A stretch of 64,000 nt of DNA from Candidatus Aenigmatarchaeota archaeon (GCA_038998335.1 JAVZHQ010000001.1:219281-283280); one strand, 5' to 3'; numbered from the stretch's first letter, positions 1-46,092 are shown. Program-made: numbers and translations. Notes: generated by a model from the sequence alone, not told the origin.

Positions 1-76
1 CAACTGCTGAAATCTTTCTTGGAGTTTTAATGTTTCTTTTAACTGTACAAATTTTCATAAGATTTTATTGTTTTTG

Positions 77-1216: not shown

Positions 1217-1318
1217 AATTTATTTTAAAATAAAGTTAATTAGATTTTTGGGAGTAAATTTCCGCTGATTCCGATTCATTAAAAATAAAAGTTATTAGGT
1301 TAATTAAATTTTATAGCT

Positions 1319-1393
1319 GGACAGGTGGCGCAGCCTGGTTAGCGCAATCGGCTGATAACCGATAGGTCGAGGGTTCAAATCCCTCCCTGTCCA
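1319..1393 (+). tRNA. tRNA-Ile (anticodon GAU)
   Basis: Cloverleaf traced by hand: acceptor ggacagg/cctgtcc, anticodon stem atcgg/ccgat, loop ctGATaa, T-arm gaggg-ttcaaat-ccctc; CCA not encoded. Confidence 0.85.
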
Positions 1394-1687
1394 TTTTGCT
1401 ATGTTATTCCAGTAAATTAAAATAAAAGGAAACATTTTTTAAAATTATTTTTTTGTATTTTTACAACTTTTTAGGTAGAAATTAATAGATATAGAGAGAT
1501 TTCTACGCTACTTCAAAATAACATCCAGCACACAAACAAGCGACTGTTCCTCTACAGGAACAACCTACCGAAACTCCTCTTGTAGTCCAAGCTTTAATCC
1601 AAACACCCGCTCTCCGTGACTAGCATCTTATAGAGTGTGTTATTAATAGGTAAGTTTTTAAATCTTTTTTGTTTTCTATCTTAAATT

Positions 1688-1927
1688 ATGATTAATTATA
1701 GAGAAAAAATCATCGAAATTTTAAAAAAATCAAATGGTTTAACTTTTTCAAGTATAGAGGTTGAATTACTCAGAAGCTTGAGTGAAAGTGAGAAAAGAGA
1801 GTACAGATTTGATAAGTTTTTTGTTGCTATTTATGATTTAGAAAATGATGGTATAATATTTAGGGGAAAAGGAGGAGAATTTGAGAAAGGAAAGTTTTAC
1901 TTAAAGCTTAAAAATAGCAATTCCTAA
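1688..1927 (+). CDS. hypothetical small protein
   Basis: 79 aa ORF directly upstream of tmk, no recognisable motif. Confidence 0.3.
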   Translation: MINYREKIIEILKKSNGLTFSSIEVELLRSLSESEKREYRFDKFFVAIYDLENDGIIFRGKGGEFEKGKFYLKLKNSNS

Positions 1928-1934
1928 CTTTTTT

Positions 1935-2555
1935 TTGATGAAAGGATTATTTATAGTGTTCGAAGGAATTACCGGCTCTGGTAAAAAAACCCACATAAAA
2001 CTTTTAGTAGAAAAACTGAAAGAAAAGGGGAAAGAAGTTACTGTAATTTCTTTTCCTAATTATGAAAGTGAAATAGCAAGATTTACAAAAAGAGCTGATT
2101 TAGACGCTTACACTCAATCTTTACTTTTTGCTGCTGATAGAAGTCTTTACCAGGAAAGGATTAAAGCTTTACTTGAAAAAGGAAACGTAATTCTTTGCGA
2201 TAGATATTGTTACAGTAACTTTGCCTATCAAGCTGCTAAAGGCTTACCTTTAGGATGGCTTAAAGAAATAGAAAAACATACCATTAAGCCTGATATTGTT
2301 TTTTTGATTGATGTGCCAGTTGAAATTAGCATGAACAGAGTTAAACAGTTAAGCATTGAAGATTTCACTAAAAAGGAAATACTTGAAAGGTTGGAAAGGG
2401 AAAAAGACTTTCTGGAAAAAATAAGGGAAATTTACTTGAGTTTAGCTGTAACTGATAAAGAAACTAAATGGTTTGTTATTAATGGTTCAGAAGATATTTC
2501 TGTTAATCATGAAAAAATTTGGAAAAAGGTAAAAGAAGAACTTAAAATTGAGTAG
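1935..2555 (+). CDS. tmk: thymidylate kinase
   Basis: N-terminal P-loop 'FIVFEGITGSGKKT' and overall length (206 aa) typical of dTMP kinase. Confidence 0.8.
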   Translation: MMKGLFIVFEGITGSGKKTHIKLLVEKLKEKGKEVTVISFPNYESEIARFTKRADLDAYTQSLLFAADRSLYQERIKALLEKGNVILCDRYCYSNFAYQAAKGLPLGWLKEIEKHTIKPDIVFLIDVPVEISMNRVKQLSIEDFTKKEILERLEREKDFLEKIREIYLSLAVTDKETKWFVINGSEDISVNHEKIWKKVKEELKIE

Positions 2556-7725: not shown

Positions 7726-7972
7726 ATCTTTTTCTACTACTTCTTTAAGTATGGGAGAAGATTTAAAATACCAAATACTTTCTAAACTTGCTTCCTCAAA
7801 AAATGGTCTTTATCTTTCCCAGTTTTACGATAAAAATTATGATTTCCTAGACTTCTTCAAAGTGCTCATGAGTTTATACAACGAAAAACTTGTAGAAAGA
7901 AATAAAGTTACGAGAAAATATGAAATAACTTCAAAAGGCTTGGAAGAATTTAAAAAGATAAAGCAAGCTTAA
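7712..7972 (+). CDS. small winged-helix DNA-binding protein (tentative)
   Basis: 86 aa; true start probably at the internal 'MGEDLKYQIL'. Confidence 0.3.
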   Translation: MNKLKSFSTTSLSMGEDLKYQILSKLASSKNGLYLSQFYDKNYDFLDFFKVLMSLYNEKLVERNKVTRKYEITSKGLEEFKKIKQA

Positions 7973-7998
7973 ATTTTTTAACTACGATTCAATAATAA

Positions 7999-22193: not shown

Positions 22194-22211
22194 AAATAAA
22201 TTATTAGAAAG

Positions 22212-22297
22212 CCCTGGTAGCTCAGTTGGTTAGAGCGCATAGTTTAGCGTAAGCTTGGTAAGCATGAGGTCCCGGGTTCAAGTCCCGGCCAGGGCTT
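22212..22297 (+). tRNA. tRNA-Thr (anticodon GGU) with a 12-nt intron inside the anticodon stem (22242-22253)
   Basis: Acceptor gccctgg/ccagggc, D-arm gctc-agttggtta-gagc, T-arm ccggg-ttcaagt-cccgg; removing agtttagcgtaa gives a perfect 5-bp anticodon stem catgc/gcatg with loop ttGGTaa. Confidence 0.6.
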
Positions 22298-26222: not shown

Positions 26223-29200
26223 TTATTCTCTCCTCCTCAAATCCTCCAAAATTCTTTTTTCAGTTCTTGCAACTATTTCTCTTACTTTCTTTATTGCATC
26301 GATATTAACTGAAATGCTTGAAATTCCACACTCAACTAAAAACTCAACCATCTCTGGAATATTGCTTGGGGCTTCGCCACAAATTGAACTTTCCACATTA
26401 TACCTATTACAAGTTTTTATTGTTTCTTTTATTAATCTTAATACTGCAGGGTGCATTTCCGAGTAAAGGTTTAATAACTTTGCGTTATTTCTATCTACGC
26501 CTAAGGTAAGCATGGTTAAATCATTAGAGCCAATAGAAGCAAATGCTATTCCTTCTTTACAAAATTCTTCTATGGTTAAAGCACAAGAAGGAACTTCGAC
26601 CATTATGCCAAGCTTACAGCTTTTTGGCAGTCTAACTTCCAAAGCAATTTCTTTTGCTTTCCTGAATTCCTCAACAGAAATTATAAAAGGAAGCATGATA
26701 TGAACATTATCCAAACCTTCTTCATGTAAAGTTTTGATAGCTTCAAACTCTGCTTTGAGTATCTCAGGCTCATCTAAACTTCTTCTTATACCATGCCATC
26801 CAAGCATTGGGTTGTCTTCTTTTGGTTCTGTTTCACCCCCTTCTAGATGTCTTAGCTCATCTGTTCTAGCGTCTAAGGTTCTTACCCATACAGGCTTGGG
26901 ATAAAATGCTTTTGCTATTGGTCTTATACCATCAAGAAGAATTTGAATGTACTCTTCTTTTCTCCCTTCCCTAACAAGTTTTGCAGGGTGTTTCCCTGAC
27001 TTAAGTATCATATGCTCGATTCTTAACAAGCCAACTCCATCAACTTTTTTTGCTATTTCTTCCACACCCTCTGGAAAAACAAGATTAACTTTTATTTGAG
27101 TAATGGTTGGCTTTATCTCTTCTTCCTCTTCTTCTGGAGCTACGATTTCTGGTGTCTCTACCTGAATTATTCCAGGATAAATCAAACCACGATAAGCATC
27201 GACAGTAACTTCTTGTCCATCTTTTAAAACTTTTGTTGCAGCTAAGGTTCCTACTACACAAGGAATTCTCATTTCTCTTGAAACTATTGCCGCATGACAG
27301 TTTGAAACTAATAGAGGAGTGTATTTTTTGGTAAACACAACATAATTTTTATTAACTTCTTCTTCCGTATCAACTTCAAAGTTAAACACTTCTGTTTTAA
27401 ATCTTTCACCAACTTCTTTAACTCTTAACATACTTAGGCTTGAGTTAAGTATTCTTTCGATTTCTTCTTTTTCTCTTCCTTCAAGCAGAGGTAAAATTCT
27501 TTCTCTAATTTTATTTCTATCGATTAAGAGGTTTTTATTCAAATAAGGCTTTATTTTTCCTTTCCAGTTTGCTTTATCTTCCAAACCTTCAAGAACTTGT
27601 TTAGCCGCAAAGAATTTGCTTCCCTTTTTCCTTTCGTCAAAATTTGCTTTAATTCTTTTACATTTTTCCAAAATTTCTTTCACTTTTTCTCCTATTTGAA
27701 CGTTACATATTTCTCTATTTTTTGTTATTTTGGGGATAATTCCTAGCTTTAAACAAGTTATTACTATCCCCCTTAGTAGGTTTTTGTCCGAAACATAAAT
27801 TTGAATTCTATTTTTAGAAATTGTACCATCCCCATCGATAACTCCTGCAAGAAAAGCTAAAGAAGTAGCTTCATCTAAGAGCAAGCACCAAGAAGCTAAG
27901 TGTTGATAGATCTTTTCTAGAATCAAAGCAGGATAAAGTCTGTAAGAAATATAATCACTTACAGTTCCGGTAACCTCTTTTCCTCTTATTTGTGTGTGAG
28001 TTATTTTCTCTTTTTGGCTAAATTCGTAACCAAAAATTTCTTTGAAATAATCTCTAACTGCAGTAATAAACTCAATTTTTGACTCTTCCTCTTTTTGAGT
28101 AAATATCACACAACCTCTTCTTAAGCCTGTCTTACCCTTAAAAATTTTCCAGTAACCGTCAGAAAAAATGCTTCCTACTAAATATCCAAGTTTTTCGTTA
28201 GAAATCTTACATTCAGAATCAGGCAGGCCAAAAGGTACACAAATAGCTAGTTTTTTACTTAAAATTTCTTGAAGTTCTTTTTTAATTAATTCTCTTTTTT
28301 CATAAGTGAAAATTTTATGGTCTGGAGTTATTCTTATGGAATTATCTTTAATCTTTCCGGTTTGTGAAACAGAAACTTCTACAGTTTGGGCAATTCTTCT
28401 AAAGGCTCTTTTAATTCTTCTCCAAATAGGTTGATTTCTTAAGCAGTCAAAAGAAAGAATGTAAACCTTTTCCTTATTCATAACTTTTTCATAGAGTTCT
28501 TCTGCAGTAACGAAACCTTTTGGCGTTAGAAGAAGAGTATCTCCTGCTATGCAGGTTTGTCCTCCGGAATCAGTTATTATAGCTGAACACTTGCTCATAG
28601 TAGGAACCAAATCAGGAGAAGTCATTGTCGTAACTAAAATATCTCCCTTTTCAACTTTATCTATATCCTTTAGGTCTAAAACAATTTTAACAACCCCTGA
28701 AGCTATCCCAGGCGAAACCCCCAAACCCTTAAGAATAGGTTCACCAACAACTTGTATTTCTTCTACTTTTCCTATGGTTGTTATCGCTCTTGTTTGAACT
28801 ATATATATTCTGTTTCTCTCTATGGCAAACTCAATGTCCTGAGGTTTACCGTAATGGTTTTCAAGTATTACTCCGTAATGAGCAAGTTTTGCTATTTCTT
28901 CTTCCGTTAAAATTTGTTTTCCTTTTTTATCTCTTGGAACAGGAATCTCTTCTGTTTTATCAGTAGCTAAATCTCTTACTCGCATAATTTCTTTTAAACC
29001 AATTTTTTTCTCGAGAAGTTTGCCATCTTTTGAAACTATATAAATATCAGGAGTAACTCTACCAGAAACAAGGGTTTCGCCTAAACCCCAACAAGCTTCT
29101 ATAACTATTTTATCTTCCCCAGTTGCAGGGTTAACCGTGAACATTACTCCAGCCTTTTCACTATTAACCATTTTTTGAATAACAACAGCAATGCTAGCAT

Positions 29201-29753
29201 GCCTAAACCCTTGTTTTGCTCTGTAAAAAATGGCTCTAGGCTCATACAAGCTTGCAAAACATTCCTTAACAGCTTGCAAAAGCTCTTTATGTCCTTTAAC
29301 GTTTAAGAAAGAAGCTTGTTGGCCAGCAAAACTTGCTGTTGGCAAATCTTCAGCAGTAGCAGAACTCCTAACTGCAACCAAAGCTAAGTCTCTCCCAGAT
29401 TTTATTATTTCTAGTTCTTTTCCAACTTCGCTATAAGAAAGAGTTTCGTAAGCTTCTATAATTTCATTTTTAATAGTTGCAGGATACTCTTGTGAAAGAA
29501 TAAGCTCTTTTATTTTTTGGGAAGTCTCAAGAAGTTGAGTAGTATTGTCAACATCACACTCTTTTATCAAATTATCTATTAAATCTTTAATTTTGTTAAT
29601 TTCTATAAATTTTTCAAAGGCATTCGTTGTTATTACAAACCCTGGAGGAACAGGAAGTCCAAGCCTTGTCATTTCTCCTAGGTTTGCACCTTTACCTCCT
29701 GCTATACTTAAGGAATCTCTTGAAAGCTCATCAAGCCATTTGATATATTCCAT
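26223..29753 (-). CDS. ppsA: phosphoenolpyruvate synthase, intein-containing
   Basis: N-terminal ATP-grasp region, phospho-His motif 'ITDSGGQT|...|CHAAIVSRE' interrupted by 418 aa, C-terminal PEP-utilising domain; 1176 aa versus ~760-800 aa for intein-free PpsA. Confidence 0.9.
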   Translation of the reverse strand: MEYIKWLDELSRDSLSIAGGKGANLGEMTRLGLPVPPGFVITTNAFEKFIEINKIKDLIDNLIKECDVDNTTQLLETSQKIKELILSQEYPATIKNEIIEAYETLSYSEVGKELEIIKSGRDLALVAVRSSATAEDLPTASFAGQQASFLNVKGHKELLQAVKECFASLYEPRAIFYRAKQGFRHASIAVVIQKMVNSEKAGVMFTVNPATGEDKIVIEACWGLGETLVSGRVTPDIYIVSKDGKLLEKKIGLKEIMRVRDLATDKTEEIPVPRDKKGKQILTEEEIAKLAHYGVILENHYGKPQDIEFAIERNRIYIVQTRAITTIGKVEEIQVVGEPILKGLGVSPGIASGVVKIVLDLKDIDKVEKGDILVTTMTSPDLVPTMSKCSAIITDSGGQTCIAGDTLLLTPKGFVTAEELYEKVMNKEKVYILSFDCLRNQPIWRRIKRAFRRIAQTVEVSVSQTGKIKDNSIRITPDHKIFTYEKRELIKKELQEILSKKLAICVPFGLPDSECKISNEKLGYLVGSIFSDGYWKIFKGKTGLRRGCVIFTQKEEESKIEFITAVRDYFKEIFGYEFSQKEKITHTQIRGKEVTGTVSDYISYRLYPALILEKIYQHLASWCLLLDEATSLAFLAGVIDGDGTISKNRIQIYVSDKNLLRGIVITCLKLGIIPKITKNREICNVQIGEKVKEILEKCKRIKANFDERKKGSKFFAAKQVLEGLEDKANWKGKIKPYLNKNLLIDRNKIRERILPLLEGREKEEIERILNSSLSMLRVKEVGERFKTEVFNFEVDTEEEVNKNYVVFTKKYTPLLVSNCHAAIVSREMRIPCVVGTLAATKVLKDGQEVTVDAYRGLIYPGIIQVETPEIVAPEEEEEEIKPTITQIKVNLVFPEGVEEIAKKVDGVGLLRIEHMILKSGKHPAKLVREGRKEEYIQILLDGIRPIAKAFYPKPVWVRTLDARTDELRHLEGGETEPKEDNPMLGWHGIRRSLDEPEILKAEFEAIKTLHEEGLDNVHIMLPFIISVEEFRKAKEIALEVRLPKSCKLGIMVEVPSCALTIEEFCKEGIAFASIGSNDLTMLTLGVDRNNAKLLNLYSEMHPAVLRLIKETIKTCNRYNVESSICGEAPSNIPEMVEFLVECGISSISVNIDAIKKVREIVARTEKRILEDLRRRE
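27300..28553 (-). mobile_element. intein with LAGLIDADG homing-endonuclease domain inside ppsA
   Basis: Starts 'CIAGDTLLL' (Cys1), ends '...TPLLVSN' followed by extein Cys; LAGLIDADG blocks 'LGYLVGSIFSDGYW' and 'LAFLAGVIDGDGTI'; sits between T and CH of the conserved GG-x-TCHAAI active-site motif. Confidence 0.8.
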
Positions 29754-35796: not shown

Positions 35797-36135
35797 GTGG
35801 TGTGGATGGGTTTGATTACAGACTTGTTCAAAAGCCTGAAAAGAGAGGAAACACTAGTAGAATTGCCAGCAGAGGAAGAGGAAAAACCTCAAGTTAACGT
35901 AAGAGTTGAAACTTTACATGATTTTGTTGATGTTGATAGGATAACTAGGTTGGTAAAAGAAGGGAACATAGTTTTCTTAAGAACTGCTCAAATGCAGAAG
36001 CATGACTTGGGAGAATTCAGGAATAGTGTAGAAAAACTGAAAAGAGTAAGCAAACAGTTTGGTTGGGACATAGTTGGTTTGGAAGAAGGATATATAATAG
36101 TAACACCAAGCTTTGCAAGAGTAGAAAGAAGCTAA
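35797..36135 (+). CDS. SepF-like cell-division protein (DUF552-like, tentative)
   Basis: 112 aa; 'GNIVFLRTAQM...GYIIVTPSFARVE' resembles the SepF C-terminal domain. Confidence 0.4.
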   Translation: MVWMGLITDLFKSLKREETLVELPAEEEEKPQVNVRVETLHDFVDVDRITRLVKEGNIVFLRTAQMQKHDLGEFRNSVEKLKRVSKQFGWDIVGLEEGYIIVTPSFARVERS

Positions 36136-36491
36136 AGTTTAAAGAAAAGCCAGTAGTTTTTCTTAAACTTGATTAAGCAGTATTTTCCTTGAAGCTTCTT
36201 ACCTTTTACTCTAAAAACCATTTTTTTATCGTCTCTTTCCTCAAGAACATAAGTTCCTTTATCCCAAATCTCAACTTTTCCTGCCCCATACTGTCCTTCT
36301 GGAATTTCTCCTTCAAAATTAGCATACTCCAAATCATGATTTTCAACTTGAATTGCAAGTCTTTTAACGCCTTTTTCTTTTGGAGGTTCTTTTGGAACAG
36401 CCCAGCTTTTAAGCTTGCCTTCCATTTCAAGTCTTAAGTCATAATGCAAATGCCTAGCTTGATGTTTATGGATTACATAAATTTTTTCCAT
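36132..36491 (-). CDS. stand-alone LigD-type 3'-phosphoesterase domain protein
   Basis: 'YVIHKHQARHLHYDLRLE...LKSWAVPKEPP' matches the LigD phosphoesterase signature. Confidence 0.6.
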   Translation of the reverse strand: MEKIYVIHKHQARHLHYDLRLEMEGKLKSWAVPKEPPKEKGVKRLAIQVENHDLEYANFEGEIPEGQYGAGKVEIWDKGTYVLEERDDKKMVFRVKGKKLQGKYCLIKFKKNYWLFFKL

Positions 36492-36521
36492 ACTTATATT
36501 TTAGGAATAGAAAAATATGAT

Positions 36522-37145
36522 GTGGAGCAATTAGTTCAATTGATAGAAAAATTGAAAAAAAGCGAAGTAAGTAAATTAATTGAAACTAGGATTAAAGAAT
36601 TTGAAGAAAACAGAAAAAAGTCAAGCGAAGAAATTTTTAAAGAGCTTTGTTTTTGTATTTTAACTGCAAACTTTAACGCAGAAAAGAGCATAAGAATTCA
36701 GGAAGAAATTAGTAATGGATTTTTGTTTCTGGAAAAAGAAGATTTAGAAAAAAAGTTAAGGGAGCTTGGTCATAGGTTCCCAAAGGCAAGAGCTTATTAT
36801 ATAGTTGAAGCAAGGAAGTTTAAAGATAAGTTAAAAAAAATTATAGAAAGTTTGAAAGAGGAAGAGCTAAGAGAATGGTTAGTGGAAAACGTTAAAGGTT
36901 TAGGATATAAAGAGGCGAGCCATTTTTTAAGAAATATTGGTTATAAAAATTTTGCGATAATAGATTTCCACATTCTTGATGTTTTAAATAAATTTAAGCT
37001 TGTAAAAAAACCAAAAGTTATAACAAAGAAAAAATACTTAGAGATAGAGAGTTTGCTTAGAAAAATTGCTGAAGAGGCTAAGCTAACTTTAGCTGAACTT
37101 GACTTATACCTTTGGTACTTAGAAACAAGAAAAGTGTTAAAATAG
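36522..37145 (+). CDS. N-glycosylase/DNA lyase (archaeal Ogg-like, HhH-GPD)
   Basis: 'FKELCFCILTANFNAEKS' and HhH 'VKGLGYKEASHFLRNIGY'; track start 36444 overlaps the divergent LigD-PE start, so in-frame GTG 36522 proposed. Confidence 0.55.
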   Translation: MEQLVQLIEKLKKSEVSKLIETRIKEFEENRKKSSEEIFKELCFCILTANFNAEKSIRIQEEISNGFLFLEKEDLEKKLRELGHRFPKARAYYIVEARKFKDKLKKIIESLKEEELREWLVENVKGLGYKEASHFLRNIGYKNFAIIDFHILDVLNKFKLVKKPKVITKKKYLEIESLLRKIAEEAKLTLAELDLYLWYLETRKVLK

Positions 37146-37166: not shown

Positions 37167-38090
37167 TCAACTTTCTAACCTTAAACTTAAAATGTATCCG
37201 CTACCGTCGCAAACTCTTGTGTTAAATTCTGGGCAAGTTCTACAACTGCCAAAGCCAAGCTTATATTTATCAGCCAAGGTTCTTATTTTCTTCGTTATGT
37301 TATATCTGTATTCTGGCGAAGCATAATAGTATATGTATCTTCTATCTGGTTTGGTGAAGTATAGGCTTGCAATTTTATCTTTTATTTCTGGTAAAGCTTT
37401 TTCTATTCTTTCTTTATATCTCCAAACAATTCTCAATGTCCCAGAGGTAATCATTCTAACTCCAGCTTCTTTCACTTGCTTTATTAGTTCTTCCAATTCT
37501 TTTTCATCATCATTTAAATAAGGAACGATAGGGTCTATCCAGACAGTGGTGAGAAATTTTTTTGAAAGTTCTTTTAAAACTTCTAATCTTTTTTGTGGCG
37601 AAGGGGCGTAGGGCTCGATTTTTCTTGCTTTTTCTTTATCTAAAGTTGTTACGGTGACAGAAGCGATAAAATATTTTGATTTTTCTAAAACATCCAAATC
37701 TCTTAACATTAAACCAGGATTTTTTGTTTGGACATTTATGGGAAAATTGTTCTTAACAAGGATTTTTAAAATCTCTCTTGTTATTTGGTACTTTTCCTCT
37801 TCATAAGTATACGGGTCTACAATAGAAGAAAGGTAAACCAAACGTTTTGGTCTGTTTTTAACTTCCTTTTTAAGTGCTTCAACCAAACCTTCCCTAGGGA
37901 TCGCAACTTCTTTTTGTATACCTCGAGATAAGTCTTGGTATTTTTTTGATTTTTTATGAAAATCGGAGAAATATCTTCCATAACAATAAACACAACCTAT
38001 AGAACATCCGATGTAGGGGTTGATCGTATACTTAGGAGGACACGTACAAAGCAATTTTTGAGACGATTTGAAATCTCTTAATACTTGCAT
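37167..38090 (-). CDS. radical SAM protein (SplB-like)
   Basis: 'CSIGCVYC' = Cx3Cx2C radical SAM cluster motif near N-terminus; 307 aa. Confidence 0.55.
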   Translation of the reverse strand: MQVLRDFKSSQKLLCTCPPKYTINPYIGCSIGCVYCYGRYFSDFHKKSKKYQDLSRGIQKEVAIPREGLVEALKKEVKNRPKRLVYLSSIVDPYTYEEEKYQITREILKILVKNNFPINVQTKNPGLMLRDLDVLEKSKYFIASVTVTTLDKEKARKIEPYAPSPQKRLEVLKELSKKFLTTVWIDPIVPYLNDDEKELEELIKQVKEAGVRMITSGTLRIVWRYKERIEKALPEIKDKIASLYFTKPDRRYIYYYASPEYRYNITKKIRTLADKYKLGFGSCRTCPEFNTRVCDGSGYILSLRLES

Positions 38091-38101
38091 TATACCACAA
38101 G

Positions 38102-38686
38102 CTAATCTTTTAAGTAGTTCAAGTTAAGGAGGTATTCTCCTTTTTCCTTTATAAGATAGCCAAGCTTACTTAATGAAAACAAGCGTCTCAATATAGTAGA
38201 TTTCCTATAGGTTCCTTTTAACGGTGAAGGTATTTTTTGTATGAGTAATTCTGGTGTAATCTTTCCTTCTTCTGCAGCAACTTCCATTATCTTATACACT
38301 AGGTCGCAGTTAAAGTGTAAGGTGTGCGTTGGATACCTCTCAAGAAATTCTTTGAGTTTCTTTGAATGTTTAGCTACAAACTCATCCTTAGGTAGATCAA
38401 GCTTTTTTGAAATAATTTCGGCTGTATCATCAGGTATTGAGAGAAATTTATCGCAAGGAAGGTGTGGTTTGGTAATAAAAGGAAGGGAAGGAACAATGAA
38501 GCCTGCTTCAGTCAACTTCTTGCTCAAATATTTTAGCTCCTTTTCAGCTTCTCTTCTTTCCTTCTTTTTTTCTCTTAGCTGATTTTCTAGTGTATTTATT
38601 TCATTTTCAAGGATTTTATAAGCTTCTATTTTTTCTACAGCCTCGTCTATAAGCTTTTTGTATTCTTTCAATTTTTCAAGACTCAT
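38102..38686 (-). CDS. coiled-coil family A protein, paralog A1 (unknown function)
   Basis: N-terminal ~65 aa 'MSLEKLKEYKKLIDEAVEKIE...KKLTEAGF' shared with A2 and A3; C-terminus winged-helix-like. Confidence 0.4.
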   Translation of the reverse strand: MSLEKLKEYKKLIDEAVEKIEAYKILENEINTLENQLREKKKERREAEKELKYLSKKLTEAGFIVPSLPFITKPHLPCDKFLSIPDDTAEIISKKLDLPKDEFVAKHSKKLKEFLERYPTHTLHFNCDLVYKIMEVAAEEGKITPELLIQKIPSPLKGTYRKSTILRRLFSLSKLGYLIKEKGEYLLNLNYLKD

Positions 38687-38754
38687 AATATCTATGAAAT
38701 TAATCGAACAATTAAGGATTTAAATTTAATTTTTATAGAACTTTTAGGACTGTC

Positions 38755-41052
38755 ATGGCAGGGAAAAAAGAAAAATTCGAGAAATTAGTAGAGCTCTTGT
38801 TGGCAAACCCTAAAATCAAGTACCATGAAATACCTACAAACCTCCATTGGACTCTCCGAAAATCTTTTGGTGGAATTAACAACGCAAAAAGAGCTCTGAG
38901 GTTAGACGCTTACATCTCAAAAACTTATAGTTCAAAACTTCCAACCCCAGAGGAGGTAGATAAAAATTTTGCTGAACTAACAGAGAAGCTAGGAAGGCAT
39001 CCTACTTATGAGGAGTTTTACGAACATTTTCCTTCTTCCTATTACGTGATTAGAAAAGGCTTATATCCTAACGTTAAAAGTTGGAAAGAATACATTAGAA
39101 GTAAGGGTTACGAACCTTATGATAATAGAGGGGTGATTTCTGACGAGCAGATAATTGAGCTTATAGAAAGAGGATTGAGTGATGCTGAAATTGCAAGAAA
39201 ATTAGGAAGAATCACAAGAAAAGGTGTTGCCTACAGAAGAAAAAAATTAGGATACCCTCCTTTTTCAAGGAAAAAATTTACTGACGAACAATTGGAAGAG
39301 GCTATAAAGAAAAGTGGAAGTTATTCTGCAGCTGCAAGGCTTCTAGGAGTAAACTCTAGTAGTTTAGCTGAAAGAGCAAAGAAAAAAGGTATAGAATCGC
39401 CTTATATCAAAAGAGTTCATCCAATTAAAAAATTTTTAAAGGAACAAGGCCCTTCTTTAGGTTCTGAAATCATTGCTGCGGTTGGAAACTTTAACGTGGG
39501 AAGATGGGTCTTATACGAAGGTAAAGACGTATGCTCGTTTCGCATACCAGGATATAAAAGCAAATTATATTTTCTAAAAGGACAAGAAGAGGAAGCAAAA
39601 AAGAAGAAAATTTTTTATATAAACAAAAAAATTGAACCTCTTTTAGAGTTTATTAAAGCTAACCCAGACTGTACACGTACAAGAATAAGAAAAGAGGGGT
39701 TTGACAGTATTATTCGTTCATGCTTTGATGACTCTCTGGATAAGGCAAAGATAATTCAAAGGTGTATCCAGTTAGGCAGGAGGGATTTAGCCAATCAACT
39801 ATTACAACAAATTAAAAACTTAGACCTGAAAGATATGGAAACGTTAGTTTCTTTGTACCAAAATGAAGCGCAAAACCAAGAAGAGGATGTAAAAATTGAA
39901 TATATAGACGTTTTAAGAGAGCCTAGCACTGCAAGAATCTATACAGAATCTACAGAAACAGAAATTGGAGACATTTTACCAAAAAAGCATTTTAAAGGAA
40001 GAAGGGTTATAGTAAAAGGTTTGAAACAAGCTGAAATGCCTAAAGAAATACCAATTTTATTAAGACTGGAGAGAGCGAAGAATACAATAGATTCGTACTT
40101 TATTCATAAAAAAGAATTGGAAGGAAAGGAAGAATACCTAAGAGAAGGCTATAGAATAACAAGAGCTTATCAAAGTAGTTATAGATTATTACAAAACTTG
40201 TTGAATTTGGAAGAATTAGAAGGGAAAACAGTTTTAGACTTAGGATGCGGCTCAAATTCTCCTTTAATGCAAGTCTTAAAAGACAAAAAAATTAACGCCA
40301 ATGTTGTTGGGTTAGACAGCCACAAAAAATCTTTACAGATTTGTAAAGAAAAATTTTCTGAGAATGAATTTATTCAGGGTTTATATCCCTACACTCTTTT
40401 CAGCTTCAGAAGCAACAGTTTTGATTGGATTTTTGCGATAAATTGTTTGCATTACACAAATGAAAAATCTGAAATTTGTGCAACATTAATTGGTTTAGAT
40501 CAGTTACTGAAGAAAGGTGGAAGAATTGTAATAATCGAACCAAGGTCTCAATCTAAGATGAAATTCAATGCTGAATTGAAGAAAAACCTTAGTGAGATGG
40601 GTTATAATGTAGAAGAGTATAATAAATATATAAAGTGGCCAGGACCACAATACTCTCATCATCTAATTCTGGTAGGCGAAAAAATAAATGAGGTAGATAG
40701 GAGTCAGGAGTATAAAAAGGCTATTGCAGCAAGTTTGATTAAAACAAACAGGTTTGAGGAAGCTAAGAAGATTGTTGAAGATTTGGGATTAACGCTAAGT
40801 GACATAATTAAGGAGAAAGAGAAAGAAATGGTATGCATCAGAAAGCCAGAAATAAGAAAAGTTTACAAAGAACCTAAGAGAGTTTTCAGTTTTGAAGAAA
40901 ACCTTAAACTATATTCTCTGATAAAAATGGTTAAAACTACAAAGATATATTCGAGAGATTTAGCAGAAAAAATGTTTGATAAGATTTTCAATTATTATTT
41001 TCAAAAAACCGAAAAATTAAAAAAATTTCGTCCTTACGTTGGTTCAAGGTAA
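38755..41052 (+). CDS. HTH-repeat plus class I SAM-dependent methyltransferase protein, paralog B1 (unknown function)
   Basis: 765 aa; tandem HTH-like repeats ('LSDAEIARKLGRITRKGVAYRRKKLG', 'SGSYSAAARLLGVNSSSLAERAKKKG'); MTase motif I 'VLDLGCGSNSP', then 'VVGLDSH' and 'FDWIFAINCLHY'. Confidence 0.5.
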   Translation: MAGKKEKFEKLVELLLANPKIKYHEIPTNLHWTLRKSFGGINNAKRALRLDAYISKTYSSKLPTPEEVDKNFAELTEKLGRHPTYEEFYEHFPSSYYVIRKGLYPNVKSWKEYIRSKGYEPYDNRGVISDEQIIELIERGLSDAEIARKLGRITRKGVAYRRKKLGYPPFSRKKFTDEQLEEAIKKSGSYSAAARLLGVNSSSLAERAKKKGIESPYIKRVHPIKKFLKEQGPSLGSEIIAAVGNFNVGRWVLYEGKDVCSFRIPGYKSKLYFLKGQEEEAKKKKIFYINKKIEPLLEFIKANPDCTRTRIRKEGFDSIIRSCFDDSLDKAKIIQRCIQLGRRDLANQLLQQIKNLDLKDMETLVSLYQNEAQNQEEDVKIEYIDVLREPSTARIYTESTETEIGDILPKKHFKGRRVIVKGLKQAEMPKEIPILLRLERAKNTIDSYFIHKKELEGKEEYLREGYRITRAYQSSYRLLQNLLNLEELEGKTVLDLGCGSNSPLMQVLKDKKINANVVGLDSHKKSLQICKEKFSENEFIQGLYPYTLFSFRSNSFDWIFAINCLHYTNEKSEICATLIGLDQLLKKGGRIVIIEPRSQSKMKFNAELKKNLSEMGYNVEEYNKYIKWPGPQYSHHLILVGEKINEVDRSQEYKKAIAASLIKTNRFEEAKKIVEDLGLTLSDIIKEKEKEMVCIRKPEIRKVYKEPKRVFSFEENLKLYSLIKMVKTTKIYSRDLAEKMFDKIFNYYFQKTEKLKKFRPYVGSR

Positions 41053-41105
41053 AACTTTTTGGTAAAGCTTAAATTTTTTACTATTTTTAATAAGTTAAGA
41101 TAAAC

Positions 41106-41819
41106 ATGGCTCTCGAAAAATTAATAGAATACAAAAAAATGTTGGATCGAGCTATCGAACTTATCGAAACCTATCCTAAGCTTCAAGCAGAGGTGGAAAG
41201 TTTAAAAAAACAATTGAAAGAGAAAAAGAAAGCAAAGAAAGAAATAGAATTAGAACTTAAAGATTTGAACAAAAAGTTGGCAGAAGCAGGCTTTTCTGTT
41301 AAAATAGAAGAAATTATGAAGGAACCTGTTACACTTACACCTCCCAAAACAGTTGGAATACTTCAAACAATTACCAAAACAATTCTTGATTATAAAGCTG
41401 GAGAAATATTTCGTCGCAAAGACGTTTATGAAAAATTCCCACCAGAAATAAAAGAAAAATATCCTGACTACTTGAAAGTTGAAGGAAATATCGGAAAAAT
41501 ACTTAACAACTTAATCAAGAAAGGTGAGGTTATAAAAATTAGGTTTGGAACTTATAAAAGAGTTGGTAAGACAGAAGAAGTTGATAATCCAAGCCATTAT
41601 TCAGAACCTATAAATAAAGCATATAGTGTTATACTGACATATGAACCTGGTAAAAGGTTTACTTATAGAGATATCAGGGAAAAATTGTTACAGGATAGGG
41701 AGGTGCGTGAGTATAGAAAGGGTTTGTCTTTAAGAATAATTCAAGCACTTCAGTTAGCTGTTGATAGCGGAAAAGTTAGGAGAATTGGAAGAGACGTTTA
41801 CGAGAGGTTATCTAACTAA
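41106..41819 (+). CDS. coiled-coil family A protein, paralog A2 (unknown function)
   Basis: N-terminus 'MALEKLIEYKKMLDRAIELIE...KKLAEAGF' closely matches A1. Confidence 0.4.
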   Translation: MALEKLIEYKKMLDRAIELIETYPKLQAEVESLKKQLKEKKKAKKEIELELKDLNKKLAEAGFSVKIEEIMKEPVTLTPPKTVGILQTITKTILDYKAGEIFRRKDVYEKFPPEIKEKYPDYLKVEGNIGKILNNLIKKGEVIKIRFGTYKRVGKTEEVDNPSHYSEPINKAYSVILTYEPGKRFTYRDIREKLLQDREVREYRKGLSLRIIQALQLAVDSGKVRRIGRDVYERLSN

Positions 41820-41834
41820 TTGTTTAGAGTTAAA

Positions 41835-43715
41835 CTAATCTATTCGTAACCTAGGTAAGCTTTTTATATATTCTCTCAATTTTTGTTCATACTTTTCTTT
41901 TGCTTCTACATACTCCTTCTGTGCTTCCTCATAGATTTTTTGTGCTGAAAGACCTAAAAGTCTTGCCAGATTTCCTAAAGAGACAATTATTGTATCTGTA
42001 GGCCAACCTAAAAATCCATCTCTCCTTCTTATTTTCTCTTGTAAATCTAACATGATTTTGTGGGTTTTTTTCCATGAGATATAATGATTTGCAGCAAGAT
42101 TTTTTACTTCGTTCATAGAAATCATCCAAGGATATTTTCCTTCTTCTCTATATTCAAATAAGTCCATTATAAAATCTTTACATCTCTGATCTTCAGGATA
42201 TGTTTGAAGCCATTTTTTAAGTTTTGCTAGCAATTTCTTATGAGTTCTTACAAAAATTTTGGGTGGTTTGAACTTTGGTATTCTTATTTTCTTCTCAACA
42301 TCTATACCTTCTAATTCTTCTATTTTTTTGAAATAATCTTTTAAAGTATGGTTATAATTTTCCGCGATTTCATACGCACGAAGCAAATACATGGTTTTTT
42401 CCTCAGCATCACTTCTGTTTTTTGCAGCTTTAAGATAACTCATTCCAACCCCTTTTACATAAGAGTTAGTCTTATCAGTTTGAAGTGTTTTTTCAGCTAT
42501 TAACAGATAAAAATAGGAAGGTTTCAAACCAACCCAATCAACTTTTAGCCTTTTCTCATGAAGGTTGTAGCTTAGACTTTCTAAATATTGTTTGGTTTCT
42601 AAATGACTTACTTTTTGAGATCTTGGATGAACTATGAAAAATTTTCCCCCTTTTTTAAGGAGCTGGTGTAGACCAGCTAAAGTAGCATATTTCTCGATTC
42701 TGTTGTTAAAATGCATAGAACATACAGCAAAAATGTAATCAAATGCATTATCAACAAAAGGAAGGGTATAAGGAAAATTTGCTTGTAAGTAGTTTTGTTT
42801 AGGAAATGTTTCCTTACTAAGCTTGAGGAATTTTTGGCAATCGTCCAAACCAATTACTTCAGCTTTTATGCCCTTTTTCTCAATTACATCTATCAAGGGA
42901 GACTTACATCCACAACCCAAATCCAAGATTGTTTTTTCGTTCAATTCTTCCGGATTTATATAAGTCTCGAACAAATCAAGAAGAAGTTTATATTCTGACA
43001 TAATTGGCTTTGAATTTACTATAATTTCTGCTACTCTTATATCGATATTTTTTGCTTTATCATGAAATTCCAAACTATCTCTCACTTTTTTCATCCATCC
43101 AACTACTTTCATAATTTCTGCAGGACCTATAGAAACTTCACCAGCTTTTAGTGGTCTTAAAACATAAGATTTTGCCCTTCTTCTTCCAACTTCTCTCCAC
43201 GCTTCAACTTCTGCCTCCATGTCTTTTGTATAAGTGTAGTGTTTACGGAATATTCTATTAAAGCCTCTTTTTAACCTCTTTCTTTCATTTCTCTCAGGAA
43301 TTTTTTCGATAAGTTTATAGAAGTCAAAAATCATTTCGAGACCGTGAGCAGAAGGAAATCTAGGAATTTCTTGGTGTAAATAATTTGCTATTAAATCTCG
43401 AATTGGTTTAGCTATGTAGATAACAACCTCTTCTGGAACTTTTTCTGTTTTTGGAAATAGCACGTTTGTTATATCGTCAAGAGTAGAAAATTTTAAGTAT
43501 CGAAAAATAAGCTCAGAAATAAGAGTTTCTTGGTCTTCTTTCAGGTTTGACAAGTTAAGAACTTTCTTGCTATATCCCCTTACAATAGAAGGAAGATTAC
43601 TCCTTAAAACTGCATATATTTCTCTAACTTTTTCCTCGTCTCTGATTAAATGCTCTATCTCATCTTTATAGATTTTCATTATCGTTTTGGGAAGACTTTT
43701 CAATTCTTTTCGCAT
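41835..43715 (-). CDS. class I SAM-dependent methyltransferase protein, paralog B2 (unknown function)
   Basis: 626 aa; 'ILDLGCGCKSP', 'VIGLDD', 'FDYIFAVCSMHF', 'KKGGKFFIVHPRSQ' parallel B1 motif for motif. Confidence 0.5.
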   Translation of the reverse strand: MRKELKSLPKTIMKIYKDEIEHLIRDEEKVREIYAVLRSNLPSIVRGYSKKVLNLSNLKEDQETLISELIFRYLKFSTLDDITNVLFPKTEKVPEEVVIYIAKPIRDLIANYLHQEIPRFPSAHGLEMIFDFYKLIEKIPERNERKRLKRGFNRIFRKHYTYTKDMEAEVEAWREVGRRRAKSYVLRPLKAGEVSIGPAEIMKVVGWMKKVRDSLEFHDKAKNIDIRVAEIIVNSKPIMSEYKLLLDLFETYINPEELNEKTILDLGCGCKSPLIDVIEKKGIKAEVIGLDDCQKFLKLSKETFPKQNYLQANFPYTLPFVDNAFDYIFAVCSMHFNNRIEKYATLAGLHQLLKKGGKFFIVHPRSQKVSHLETKQYLESLSYNLHEKRLKVDWVGLKPSYFYLLIAEKTLQTDKTNSYVKGVGMSYLKAAKNRSDAEEKTMYLLRAYEIAENYNHTLKDYFKKIEELEGIDVEKKIRIPKFKPPKIFVRTHKKLLAKLKKWLQTYPEDQRCKDFIMDLFEYREEGKYPWMISMNEVKNLAANHYISWKKTHKIMLDLQEKIRRRDGFLGWPTDTIIVSLGNLARLLGLSAQKIYEEAQKEYVEAKEKYEQKLREYIKSLPRLRID

Positions 43716-43953
43716 GATCTCGAATAGTTATCGAATAATTAAAACTTTTAAGATTTACTGTAAAGAGAGCCTAAGATATCATTCAATTTTTTCAACGCAA
43801 AAACAAGGTTTCTATTTAAGGAAAACTTGGATAAAACTTCATCGTCACATTTTAACAAAAAATCAAGTAGTTGAGTTACGGGAATTTCGTACTTTCTTAA
43901 TATCTCAGTAATACTATATTTTTTAAGCTCTTCCTCTAAGTTTAGTTTAGGCT

Positions 43954-44769
43954 TTATGTTACTGGCAAAAAATAGCTCTCCCTAAATACATAAAATGTTT
44001 GAGAATCAGAAACTTCTGTTTGAATTTTACCCTCTTCTACTAAATCAACAAGTACTAAAAGACCACAACTTCTTAACATTTTTCTGCTCAACTTGTATGT
44101 TCGCGAAAAATCTAAAAGGCGTGATGCTAAATCCTTGTATTGGAATTTTTTGAGCTCTCTTGCATGAAATTCTATACTTTCTTTTAACTTTTTCATAAGT
44201 TCAATTTTTTTATCATCACTGAGCCATTCCGCTTTTTCCAAAAAGTCAGGAACATAAGGAAGCTTTTCACCTTTTGGAGAATAAATAGGATAATTATACA
44301 CATACTCTTTTCCTGGTTTTGGTGTTTTTAATTTTATGTAACGGATATGTCTCTTATCATACAATCCTTCACTAACAGCTTTTTCAAGAAAACTTGATAC
44401 TAGATTGCGTGTTTTGAGTGTATACGGTAAATTCAATTTTTTAATAATCGATTTTGGTGTGACACTTCTTCCTTCTCTTACTCTTTCTCCTGTTTTTGGG
44501 TCTAAACCCATTATTTCACTAGAAACTTCTATAACTCTTTCGTAAGTCAGTTCTTCTGGTTTAATGATTTTTGGTGCGATTTTTTCAAAAGTTATAGAAG
44601 GTAACGAAGAGACAGAAATAGAAAACCCAAACTTAAAAAGTTTCTTGTTTAACTCTTGGATTTCTTCCACGTTCTTTTCCAATTCTTTTTTGAGTTTTTC
44701 AAGTTTTTCAACTTTTTCTACAGCTTCAGAAATTAAGTCTCTTTGTTCCTTCAATTTTTCTATCGACAT
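43954..44769 (-). CDS. coiled-coil family A protein, paralog A3 (unknown function)
   Basis: Start moved to internal ATG 44769 ('MSIEKLKEQRDLISEAVEKVE...') which aligns with A1/A2; track N-terminal extension is hydrophobic and unsupported. Confidence 0.4.
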   Translation of the reverse strand: MSIEKLKEQRDLISEAVEKVEKLEKLKKELEKNVEEIQELNKKLFKFGFSISVSSLPSITFEKIAPKIIKPEELTYERVIEVSSEIMGLDPKTGERVREGRSVTPKSIIKKLNLPYTLKTRNLVSSFLEKAVSEGLYDKRHIRYIKLKTPKPGKEYVYNYPIYSPKGEKLPYVPDFLEKAEWLSDDKKIELMKKLKESIEFHARELKKFQYKDLASRLLDFSRTYKLSRKMLRSCGLLVLVDLVEEGKIQTEVSDSQTFYVFRESYFLPVT

Positions 44770-45015
44770 TTTTACCCATAATTTATTAAGCAGTAAAAAA
44801 TTTAAGATTATACCCACAAAAGTAACAAAGTTATAAGAAAAAAATTGTTTCCAAAAAAGAATACGAACAATGGTTAGGAAAACCTGGTGCAATGATAATC
44901 AAAGCACAAAAAGTTTTTGAAGCAAGCGGTGAGTAAAATTGCTTGGTAGAGGTAGTGTAACAATAAGAATCATGAAAAAGCATGTTACTAAATTGCTGGA
45001 ATAAGGGAATATAAA

Positions 45016-46092
45016 CTAAAATGGTCTTTGTTCCCTTCTCAAAGAAAACAAGCTAGCAAGATTCCCAACTTTTGTTAACAAATCATAATAAAATAGTTCT
45101 AAATCTTTTTCTGTAAGCTTCGCTCTTTGGTCTGCTTCTATAAGAACAGAAGGCATTCCATAGTTTGCATGTCCACTCAAAGCAAGCAAAACAGAAGAAA
45201 TAAAATTTGCAGTTTTTACACAATCTTTTTCTCCTAGAAAATCAACTCTAATTGGTCTATCAAACTCAGCAGTTTTTAGATAGAATGAAAATATTGAATT
45301 TGAAAATTCACCAAACTCTTTTAGAATAGGATGCTTTTCTGGTTCAGAAGAATAGTTGAAAACACAAGTTCTTTCGTTTAGTTTTAAAGCATAAGTTAAA
45401 AGATTGGAGTCTTTTGAGTTTTCAAGCAAAGGTTTAAACTCTATCAGTTCAGGATTAAGATTAGCTTTTTCCTTTATTATCTCACAAAATCTTGTTCCTC
45501 TTGAGTCCTCTATTACTCCAGCCAAAACGCAATTTTTTTCTCTAGCTTTTGAAAAGAGGTTTAAATAAGATTGAATCAAGTTTTCGTAAGTTGGAAAAAG
45601 TATCGAATCCTTTGCTGGTTTTTCTGTGTAATGAGGAATTATTGAACCATCTAGAAAAATTATGTCAGGTTTAAAATTTTCTATAACTTCAGAAGCTGTA
45701 GAAGTTTCAATTATTTGTCTTTCATAGTTTGAGTTCATCTCAAGCTCTATCTCATGTAAAGGTTCAAAAACTATTTTTGGGATAGGTGTTGGTAAAGCTT
45801 CAGGATAATATTCAACTTTTTCAAGCTTTCCTTTTGAGTAAAAGAATATAACTCCAATTGCTCTCAACAATATCAAATCCATGCCATGTAAAGAACGTTT
45901 TACTATTCCTCCATCTACACCAGCAATTTTTAAGCTTTCTAGGTTTGATTTTTCAACCTTAAAAATAGTTTTTTCCTCTATTCCAGAAGAAATAGAAATT
46001 TTTCTTAGAACTTCAGCAAGCCTTATTCTTTCTGATTCCATTTTTTCGATTTTCTTAGCAAGCTCTTCCGTTATCTTGAACAAATCTTCCAT
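45016..46092 (-). CDS. NurA-like nuclease domain protein (tentative)
   Basis: 358 aa; 'IAGVDGG' and 'IIFLDGSIIP' acidic motifs resemble the NurA RNase H-like fold; no HerA-like ATPase adjacent. Confidence 0.35.
   Translation of the reverse strand: MEDLFKITEELAKKIEKMESERIRLAEVLRKISISSGIEEKTIFKVEKSNLESLKIAGVDGGIVKRSLHGMDLILLRAIGVIFFYSKGKLEKVEYYPEALPTPIPKIVFEPLHEIELEMNSNYERQIIETSTASEVIENFKPDIIFLDGSIIPHYTEKPAKDSILFPTYENLIQSYLNLFSKAREKNCVLAGVIEDSRGTRFCEIIKEKANLNPELIEFKPLLENSKDSNLLTYALKLNERTCVFNYSSEPEKHPILKEFGEFSNSIFSFYLKTAEFDRPIRVDFLGEKDCVKTANFISSVLLALSGHANYGMPSVLIEADQRAKLTEKDLELFYYDLLTKVGNLASLFSLRREQRPF

Follow-up and report, generated by a model that had tools for sequence, protein, structure and literature searches.

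Introduction

Several described systems combine an S-adenosylmethionine (SAM)-dependent methyltransferase with variable DNA-binding modules, which are either fused to the enzyme or encoded separately, and with diversification of paralogs. The M and S subunits of restriction-modification systems, orphan methyltransferases and mad2 of MADS are all alike in this respect to the gene cluster described here. The cluster lies in a 64,000-nt stretch of DNA from Candidatus Aenigmatarchaeota archaeon (GCA_038998335.1, JAVZHQ010000001.1:219281-283280), which was analyzed as a whole and is called the window below; positions are counted from its first letter. Two gene families make up the cluster, the methyltransferases B1 and B2 and the short coiled-coil proteins A1, A2 and A3, in the order A1, B1, A2, B2, A3. 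The core of the B proteins belongs to the class I type of the UbiE/Bud23-like methyltransferases (Methyltransf_11, Methyltransf_25 and Methyltransf_31), but, unlike in those enzymes, it is embedded in proteins of 500-990 amino acids (aa) with family-specific helical modules on both sides of it, a conserved ...IDV..P.P linker and arrays of HNH-repeat and helix-turn-helix (HTH) units.

Other described systems offer looser parallels. In the Ada adaptive response, an HTH regulator with a methyl-transfer domain controls the alkylation-repair genes alkA and alkB. The likeness is one of gene-neighborhood theme only: an HTH module and methyl-transfer chemistry are found together with an alkylpurine glycosylase, which is AlkA in the Ada response and AAG here. 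However, Ada uses suicidal cysteine acceptors (Ada_Zn_binding and the O6-alkylguanine transferase fold), whereas the cluster has a SAM-dependent Rossmann methyltransferase, and neither of the two Ada domains gave a Pfam match in the cluster. Gene pairs of a radical SAM protein and a DNA glycosylase are also known, for example radical SAM proteins linked to UDG-family proteins (TIGR03916-type). As in these pairs, a radical SAM gene is found here beside base-excision enzymes and DNA-binding proteins, but it is of the PA0069/Rv2578c-like clade, radical SAM and AAG genes alternate between loci, and the constant partner is a class I methyltransferase. Finally, the A proteins resemble KfrA and AbiEi-like proteins in having a coiled coil and winged-helix-like regions, with sub-threshold matches only; their domain order is the reverse of that in KfrA, the AbiEii partner expected beside AbiEi is absent from the cluster, and membership in either family is not established.

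The cluster is a class I methyltransferase with DNA-binding modules in an undescribed combination. That the pairing of A and B matches no described system had been noticed from the sequence alone, and scans with NCBIfam, PHROG and PADLOC as well as literature searches agree; no description of the cluster was found in the literature searched. It is real, conserved and so far confined to Aenigmatarchaeota. We propose, with a probability of about 0.5, that it encodes a lineage-specific nucleic-acid-tethered methyltransferase module linked to DNA-lesion-processing enzymes.

Conservation of the A-B neighborhood

The existence of two families, proposed in an earlier reading of the window made from sequence only, is supported by the similarity of B1 to B2 (E 1e-42) and by the coiled-coil identities among the A proteins given below. 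Gene-neighborhood comparison further showed that A and B are co-conserved as neighbors, with A-like genes beside B genes in four other independent loci. In L002, an A3-type gene (L002_247, E 1.6e-19 across the full length of A3) is divergent from the gene of the B protein P0004. In L004, the A1-type gene L004_217 (7e-15 to the C-terminal domain of A1) is located upstream of a gene for the DNA-binding N-module described below, which is followed by P0007. In L205/206, the A3-type L205_248, related to A3 at 1e-6, diverges from an HNH-repeat gene, after which comes P0020, and in L207 the A1-type L207_217 (3e-11 to the A1 C-terminal domain, 6e-18 to L004_217) is divergent from P0005. Since the A family is extremely rare (a profile search returned five clusters among 5.8 billion), this adjacency cannot be due to chance. 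Among 597 open reading frames (ORFs), hidden Markov models (HMMs) of both A types recovered only the A-family proteins of the known A loci. The A genes usually face away from B, and the divergent spacers between them are 68 bp in the window, 68 bp in L205 and 63 bp in L207. Orthologs are 30-45% identical, yet gene order is kept.

It was previously suggested that an A+B unit had been duplicated and inverted, but a recent event of this kind is not supported. The pairings are reversed relative to the window in other loci, with an A3-type gene accompanying a B1-type gene in L002 and an A1-type gene accompanying a B2-type gene in L004, and this variation favors a single system whose parts are interchangeable over a model of fixed A+B units. 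Moreover, B1 is closer to P0004 (261 bits, residues 64-696) than to B2 (151 bits), and for B2, P0007 (E 9e-72 over 481 aa) is a closer relative than B1 (about 1e-38). As each of the two is nearer to proteins of other genomes than to the other, the duplication predates those lineages, and the B1-type and B2-type proteins are old paralogous lineages and did not arise by a recent local duplication.

The B methyltransferases

Word-indexed searches with B2, A2 and an A-family profile gave almost only self-matches, and even B1 was missed when B2 was the query; because such searches were blind even to the B1-B2 relation, an exhaustive HMMER search was required. With B1 as a query against 1.84 billion representatives, it gave 667 matches (E up to 1e-3), which were mostly generic, and revealed about 20 long proteins (411-987 aa) that align across the methyltransferase and its family-specific flanks. 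These include P0004-P0009, P0011, P0012, P0015, P0020, P0021, P0025, P0026, P0047, P0058 and P0087, and all members with a named source come from Aenigmatarchaeota. The hallmarks of the family in the alignment are an extended motif I, LDLGCGxxSP, a conserved helical module after the methyltransferase and the ...IDV..P.P linker. In metagenomes, the pattern K-x-[IV]-L-D-[LIV]-G-C-G-x-x-S-P matched, among the matches listed, only L171, apparently the same locus as L004, while a scan of genome contigs with the generic motif I gave 62 matches, all to unrelated methyltransferases.

B1 and B2 are 39% identical over 236 aa, which cover the methyltransferase core and about 50 aa more. Both pass the Pfam gathering thresholds, B1 with 51.1 bits for Methyltransf_31 (cut-off 27), 43.3 for Methyltransf_11 (21.2) and 42.9 for Methyltransf_25 (27), and B2 with 46.0, 41.9 and 39.9 bits, respectively, so the common class I core first read from the sequence stands. 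The similar flanking regions also attributed to the pair were found only on one side: about 100 aa after the core are related (hhalign probability 95%), but the N-terminal regions are not. Motif I for SAM binding (GxGxG) and the acidic residue at the end of beta-2 are present, as is the Rossmann-like seven-stranded fold, and the SAM-binding residues are intact, with L264, G267 and D326 invariant and G269 and D291 nearly so in an alignment of 17 sequences (B2 numbering).

In an AlphaFold2 (AF2) model of B2 made with the family alignment (pLDDT 82), a helical domain (aa 1-157) forms the N-terminus, and a basic, disordered linker joins it to the methyltransferase core; after the core come a three-helix module, an HTH/winged-helix-like region and, at the C-terminus, a long helix with the ending ...PRLRID. 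P0007, P0011 and P0008 align with B2 over about 480 aa. The B2-type proteins (B2, P0007, P0011, P0012, P0015, P0021, P0047 and P0058) end in a long helix (41835-41900 of the window in B2) with a conserved terminal L-(R/K/H/Q)-I, to which one more residue is added in some cases. This ending is not present in B1-type proteins and may be a docking motif.

The B proteins have no close sequence relative of known function; their best NCBIfam matches reach 30-40 bits against cut-offs of 150-300. Their structural neighbors include Bud23 (18S m7G), METTL6 (tRNA m3C) and Trm112-dependent methyltransferases. Motif IV, (D/N/S)PP(Y/F/W), was not found by regular-expression search in the core of 18 family members, a single SPPF in P0058 being outside the core, and B1 and B2 gave no Pfam match to the N6_Mtase, N6_N4_Mtase, MethyltransfD12 and Eco57I profiles at E up to 0.1. 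Together with the fold neighbors, this bears out the earlier view that B is not a canonical DNA amino-methyltransferase. As for C5-cytosine methyltransferase motifs, the same type of search found PCQ in none of the members and ENV only sporadically, in three of them and unconserved. A weak match to phrog_954, annotated as 'DNA methyltransferase', was seen at 0.004. The B proteins, which form a distinct small family, are predicted to be active class I SAM-methyltransferases.

Putative DNA-binding arrays of the N-module

The N-terminal part of B1, referred to here as the N-module, gives weak Pfam matches to HNH_repeat, HTH_8, HTH_23 and GcrA. HNH_repeat (PF18780) scores 20.6 bits in B1, below the cut-off of 26; in HMMER comparisons, however, B1 residues 60-220 match many multi-repeat proteins, residues 64-123 being the repeat-unit part, and HNH_repeat is clear in partner proteins (464 bits with 7 repeats in L206_449, 854 bits in P0074). 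Homologs of the module are L004_440 (E 1e-19 to 3e-24), P0010 and the N-terminus of P0004, and Pfam matches to HTH and HNH_repeat are also seen in L004_440 and L206_449. The module is fused to the methyltransferase in B1, P0004 and P0006, the last of which has seven clear HNH repeats, and it is encoded by separate genes beside B2-type methyltransferases in L004 (L004_440), L005 (L005_377, L005_389 and a third fragment), L006 (L006_414 and L006_345) and L201 (L201_272). The methyltransferase of L205/206 has genuine HNH-repeat proteins (464 bits) on either side. Across the 10 independent loci compared, an N-module was found fused or adjacent to B wherever flanks were available (L002, L004, L005, L006, L007, L201, L202 and L205). 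Judged by these homologies, the N-module, which the earlier reading overlooked, is the most constant partner of the B methyltransferase, and B1 is best described as this predicted DNA-binding module fused to the methyltransferase.

The HTH types of the appended modules include HTH_23, HTH_7, GerE, sigma-70 region 4 and LexA-like, and the parts of A and B outside the catalytic core are all basic (isoelectric point, pI, 9.1-9.8). No HNH nuclease domain was matched in B1, B2, the scanned N-module and repeat partners or further repeat/HTH proteins. Comparisons by hhalign did not relate the A family to the N-module or to the C-termini of the B proteins, nor did they relate the N-terminus of B2 to the N-module or to the A family. 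Searches of PDB sequences with N-module, A-family and radical SAM profiles gave only noise or weak NarL-type HTH matches, and no solved-structure relative of the radical SAM protein was found in this way.

A separate protein, P0024 (773 aa), consists of archaeal TFIIB/TFB (Zn ribbon and cyclin repeats) fused to an HTH array like that of B1 residues 128-222. This fusion suggests that the HTH arrays are a general DNA-targeting device in these archaea.

The A proteins

The A proteins do have an N-terminal coiled coil in common, although to call it near-identical, as was done initially, was an overstatement: A1 and A2 are 58% identical over the first 65 aa, and A3 is 43% identical to A1 and 29% to A2. 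Their C-termini are of two types, whose HMMs cross-match only at about 5e-4, and the A1-type HMM matches A2 at 5e-10. In addition to the relatives in L004 and L207 named above, the C-terminal domain of A1 is homologous to P0155. The proteins probably dimerize via the coiled coil. Matches to described families are below threshold: A2 matches AbiEi_4 of Pfam at 0.004 (17.6 bits, cut-off 25) and AbiEi of PADLOC at 2e-4, and L002_247 matches KfrA_N at 9e-4. An AF2 model of A2, made with no alignment, has a pLDDT of 45, too low for a fold search. We considered an AbiE toxin-antitoxin system and rejected it, given the score of AbiEi_4 and the lack of an AbiEii gene in the cluster.

Radical SAM and glycosylase genes next to the cluster

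In the window, the start codon of a radical SAM gene is 11 nt downstream of the A1 stop codon, and the gene is probably co-transcribed with A1. Spacers of this size recur: the radical SAM gene of L205/206 is 11 nt from its A3-type neighbor, and in L207 a gene for an AAG-type (PF02245) purine DNA glycosylase follows the A1-type gene after 7 nt. The radical SAM gene is present in the neighborhood of three loci (the window, L002 and L205/206), the orthologs in L002 and L205/206 having the same position and 39-46% identity. The AAG gene adjoins B in three loci, in L207, in L006, where it is directly upstream of the N-module and B genes, and in L007/8, where it is directly upstream of B. Adjacency to radical SAM or AAG, in differing arrangements, therefore recurs in six loci.

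The cysteines C29-x3-C33-x2-C36 are invariant in the three radical SAM orthologs, and the Radical_SAM profile scores 55.8 bits (cut-off 29.5). The NCBIfam profiles rSAM_PA0069 and rSAM_Rv2578c score 139 bits (1.7e-40) against a cut-off of 360 and 123.5 bits against a cut-off of 430, respectively; by these scores the protein is a relative, and not a member, of the PA0069 and Rv2578c families. We take this clade to be COG1533, historically labeled 'DNA repair photolyase'.

In L002, the order of genes is A, an extra methyltransferase, radical SAM. The extra gene (1643-2428, minus strand) codes for a class I methyltransferase of 261 aa that is PCMT/UbiE-like and has only distant similarity (E 4e-6) to the core of B.

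The earlier placement of a radical SAM gene beside A1 and a NurA-like nuclease gene beside A3 was confirmed with Pfam in both cases, NurA (PF09376) scoring 59.2 bits against a cut-off of 21. The cluster of the window is, moreover, bracketed by genes for a LigD 3'-phosphoesterase, Ogg and NurA. The NurA gene has A3 and a HAD hydrolase gene as its neighbors, and NurA adjacency was seen in none of the other B loci examined. Archaeal NurA is usually encoded in an operon with HerA, Mre11 and Rad50. The gene in the window stands alone, no Pfam match to any of these three being found among 30 scanned window ORFs (10 around the cluster, 10 at 14-31 kb and 10 at 51.6-63.6 kb).

Organization and genomic setting of the locus

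The features of the locus are listed in Table 1. The five ORFs have the coordinates and strands originally given for them, and A2 and B2 converge with a gap of 15 bp, as ORF calling and the gene calls of the metagenome-assembled genome (MAG) record JAVZHY010000001.1 (GCA_038998295.1), which contains matching A1, B1, A2, B2 and A3 genes, both show. The ATG at 44769 as the start of A3 is supported by the MAG gene call and by the promoter motif in front of it.

Table 1. Features of the cluster and its neighbors, by position in the window
Feature	Position (nt)	Strand	Evidence and remarks
LigD-type 3'-phosphoesterase	36132-36491	-	Pfam LigD_N 2.5e-40; context, unproven part
Ogg 8-oxoguanine glycosylase	36444-37145	+	Pfam Ogg-HhH 1.3e-63; context, unproven part
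Radical SAM gene	37167-38090	-	Pfam Radical_SAM 8e-15, DUF1848; CxxxCxxC; PA0069/Rv2578c-like, COG1533 type
A1, 194 aa, A1-type	38102-38686	-	N-terminal coiled coil; basic winged-helix-like C-terminal domain; pI 9.0
A1-B1 divergent intergenic region, 68 bp	38687-38754		TATA-like AT-rich boxes
B1, total, 765 aa	38755-41052	+	ORF calling
B1 N-module, aa 1-440	38755-40074	+	One HNH-repeat-like unit, two HTH units, winged-helix-like region; pI 9.8
B1 class I SAM-methyltransferase core, aa ~470-650	40162-40704	+	Pfam above cut-offs; family alignment
B1 post-methyltransferase helical module (family-specific) and basic tail	after core, to 41052	+	Family alignment
Promoter-like 15-mer CTTAAATTTTTTACT	41068-41082	+	23 nt upstream of A2 ATG
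A2, 237 aa	41106-41819	+	Coiled coil; basic C-terminal region, weak winged-HTH signals
B2, 626 aa, B2-type	41835-43715	-	Pfam; AF2 model; methyltransferase core aa ~255-410 = nt 42486-42953
TTAATTATTCGATAA	43728-43742	-	12 nt upstream of B2 ATG; resembles A1 upstream element
A3, 271 aa, A3-type	43954-44769	-	Coiled coil and two winged-helix-like regions
Promoter-like 15-mer CTTAAATTTTTTACT	44792-44806	-	22 nt upstream of A3 ATG
NurA-domain nuclease gene	45016-46092	-	Pfam NurA 5.8e-16; neighbor only

The two copies of CTTAAATTTTTTACT in front of A2 and A3 are identical, each is followed by AATAA, and no other exact copy occurs in the window. With two mismatches, the element also precedes other genes, for example at 7968-7982 before an ORF at 7999, and on account of such looser copies the element is probably a general promoter consensus, a local BRE/TATA type that probably drives leaderless transcripts. 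A different element, TTAATTGTTCGATTA, is located at 38701-38715 (minus strand) in the A1-B1 intergenic region. The motif TTAATTRTTCGATWA matches the window exactly at only two places, in TTAATTGTTCGATTA, 14 nt before the ATG of A1, and in TTAATTATTCGATAA, 12 nt before the ATG of B2; with up to two mismatches there are five matches against 2.05 expected, which for a motif defined post hoc corresponds, by our own estimate, to p of about 0.1. A shared A1/B2 operator is possible but not statistically convincing.

The cluster sits in a chromosomal, non-mobile housekeeping stretch of a Candidatus Aenigmatarchaeota MAG, and proteins from closely related assemblies carry the same source name. GC content is uniform along the window, and the flanks encode PEP synthase, carbamoyl-phosphate synthase, ATCase, MetRS, SHMT and ThyX. 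Scans of the window revealed no further A or B paralogs in its 64 kb and no meaningful DNA repeats, adjacent tRNA or integrase hallmarks around the cluster.

Some observations concern other genes of the window and of the comparison loci. The PEP synthase/PPDK-like gene (26223-29753, minus strand, 1176 aa) is split by a LAGLIDADG intein, with Intein_splicing and LAGLIDADG_3 matches at aa ~415-798. The same two profiles match a translation-factor GTPase gene (GTP_EFTU, eIF2_C) at 1-1790 (minus strand) of L205, in a second Aenigmatarchaeota MAG, whose 1002-aa product runs off the locus end, which suggests that this gene carries an intein as well. ARAGORN called a tRNA of undetermined identity at 22210-22297 (plus strand) with a four-base anticodon, ttag; this could be a miscall or an archaeal tRNA that contains an intron or is otherwise atypical. 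L007 (320-2038) and L008 (355-1934), otherwise collinear, have different cassettes beside the same 210-aa gene, HEPN with nucleotidyltransferase in the former and AbiEii in the latter, and this looks like a toxin-antitoxin swap at one site.

Proposed mechanism and alternatives

In the mechanism that we propose for a tethered methyltransferase module, the arrays of HTH, HNH-repeat and winged-helix units, fused to the B enzyme (B1, P0004, P0006) or encoded next to it (L004, L005, L006, L201, L205), would bring it to DNA. The A proteins, whose genes are usually transcribed divergently from B and open a tight operon with the COG1533-type radical SAM gene or the AAG gene, would be coiled-coil dimers with winged-helix-like domains and would most likely serve as a local DNA-binding regulator or an adaptor that couples both arms. 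The whole system may work in the context of DNA base damage or modification. Candidate methyl acceptors would be a non-canonical position of a DNA base, a DNA-bound protein or RNA.

Several observations weigh against this proposal. The closest folds of B in the fold search are small-molecule, lipid and RNA methyltransferases, with no DNA methyltransferases among them. The 'DNA repair' label of the COG1533 radical SAM proteins is historical, a repair role is inferred from it, and the protein scores below the NCBIfam cut-offs. The assignment of winged helices to A is based on sub-threshold matches and a low-confidence model. The B loci L005, L006 and L007 lack A, and in L203 there is no B gene for 7-10 kb around the A1-type gene of P0155, which shows that A is not an obligatory part. 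Finally, most comparison loci are short metagenomic contigs, several possibly from related organisms, and synteny by descent may inflate the counts.

It is also conceivable, though we consider it unlikely, that A and B form an ordinary pair of regulator and target, A being a local winged-helix transcription factor and B a stand-alone metabolic or RNA-modifying enzyme, for example of rRNA or tRNA, whose helical and HTH extras bind RNA or serve autoregulation, with the repair-type neighbors coincidental. A small basic winged-HTH-like gene diverging from an enzyme gene is the classic layout of a regulator, the structural neighbors of B modify RNA in the case of Bud23 and METTL6 and include Trm112-dependent enzymes, a gene for RNase P Rpp14 is directly downstream in L007, and each gene has its own TATA-like promoter. 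However, the appended modules are typical DNA-binding HTH types that are also found fused to TFB, and core RNA-modification enzymes would not be expected to form a rare, lineage-restricted family with a pair of paralogs at each locus. Coincidence also does not explain well why radical SAM or AAG genes adjoin the cluster in six loci and in different arrangements.

Alternatively, the parts might constitute a write-and-remove system, a possibility that we find quite unlikely, in which B would put a lesion-like methyl mark on DNA at sites chosen by the arrays, and A with the AAG or radical SAM arm would remove or reverse it. The mark could, for example, be on a ring nitrogen, such as m7G, m3A or m1A, as with the nearest RNA-methyltransferase relatives. 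If true, this would mean a reversible epigenetic switch, or the destruction of foreign DNA by methylation and subsequent excision in a host-dependent DPANN archaeon.

A role in defense was also weighed, with the methyltransferase marking self or damaging foreign DNA, the glycosylase, radical SAM protein or NurA acting as an effector and the arrays providing specificity, as in restriction-modification. Expansion of paralogs, swapping of DNA-binding modules, the weak AbiEi-like signal of A2, NurA beside A3 and glycosylases adjoining B in three loci would fit such a role, and so would a PADLOC match of the methyltransferase core to mad2 (5.6e-13). The mad2 profile is, however, probably a generic methyltransferase profile, and there is no other PADLOC match, NurA included. 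The DNA-methyltransferase motifs DPPY and PCQ are missing, no nuclease or ATPase effector is conserved, NurA among them, and the locus is situated among housekeeping genes with no defense island, which makes this explanation improbable. The identification with mad2 itself was rejected, as this sole PADLOC match falls on the generic core and the HMMs of MADS were built on PDB homologues aligned with HHpred.

The cluster could also be what remains of a mobile or selfish element, for example a relative of homing endonucleases or transposons, that carried the DNA-binding modules and the methyltransferase into the chromosome. The HNH_repeat family takes its definition from an association with homing endonucleases, there are HTH matches of transposase and terminase type, and PHROG matches to phage DNA-binding proteins reach 4e-6. 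Yet no locus has an HNH, transposase, integrase or replication domain, terminal repeats, tRNA targets and GC deviation are lacking, and, generic methyltransferase similarity aside, IMG/VR, GenBank phages, PLSDB and BFVD contain no member of the family: a degenerate motif-I pattern matched nine viral contigs of IMG/VR, none with a family member, and the BFVD fold search returned generic methyltransferases only. Since the degree of divergence of orthologs that have kept their gene order indicates long vertical residence, such an origin is highly improbable. That the genes are fast-evolving orphan paralogs brought together by chance or local duplication, as the near absence of anything but self-matches in word-indexed searches and the lack of A in some B loci might suggest, is barely tenable and largely refuted by synteny, given that both families, the N-module and the radical SAM gene are co-located in several deeply diverged loci.

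Conclusions

DPANN archaea have very small genomes. In this one, the cluster takes about 6.7 kb, roughly 1.4% of a 475-kb contig, and its parts are kept together in related Aenigmatarchaeota despite identities as low as 30-45%, which argues for a selected, undescribed function. If the methyl acceptor is a small molecule or RNA, the cluster would be just one more lineage-specific enzyme with a local regulator. The combination of a methyltransferase of generic fold with modular DNA-binding arrays and DNA-lesion enzymes is nevertheless a testable lead, and the cluster could reveal an unrecognized DNA or chromatin methylation activity of archaea or a new regulatory link between methylation and base-excision repair.

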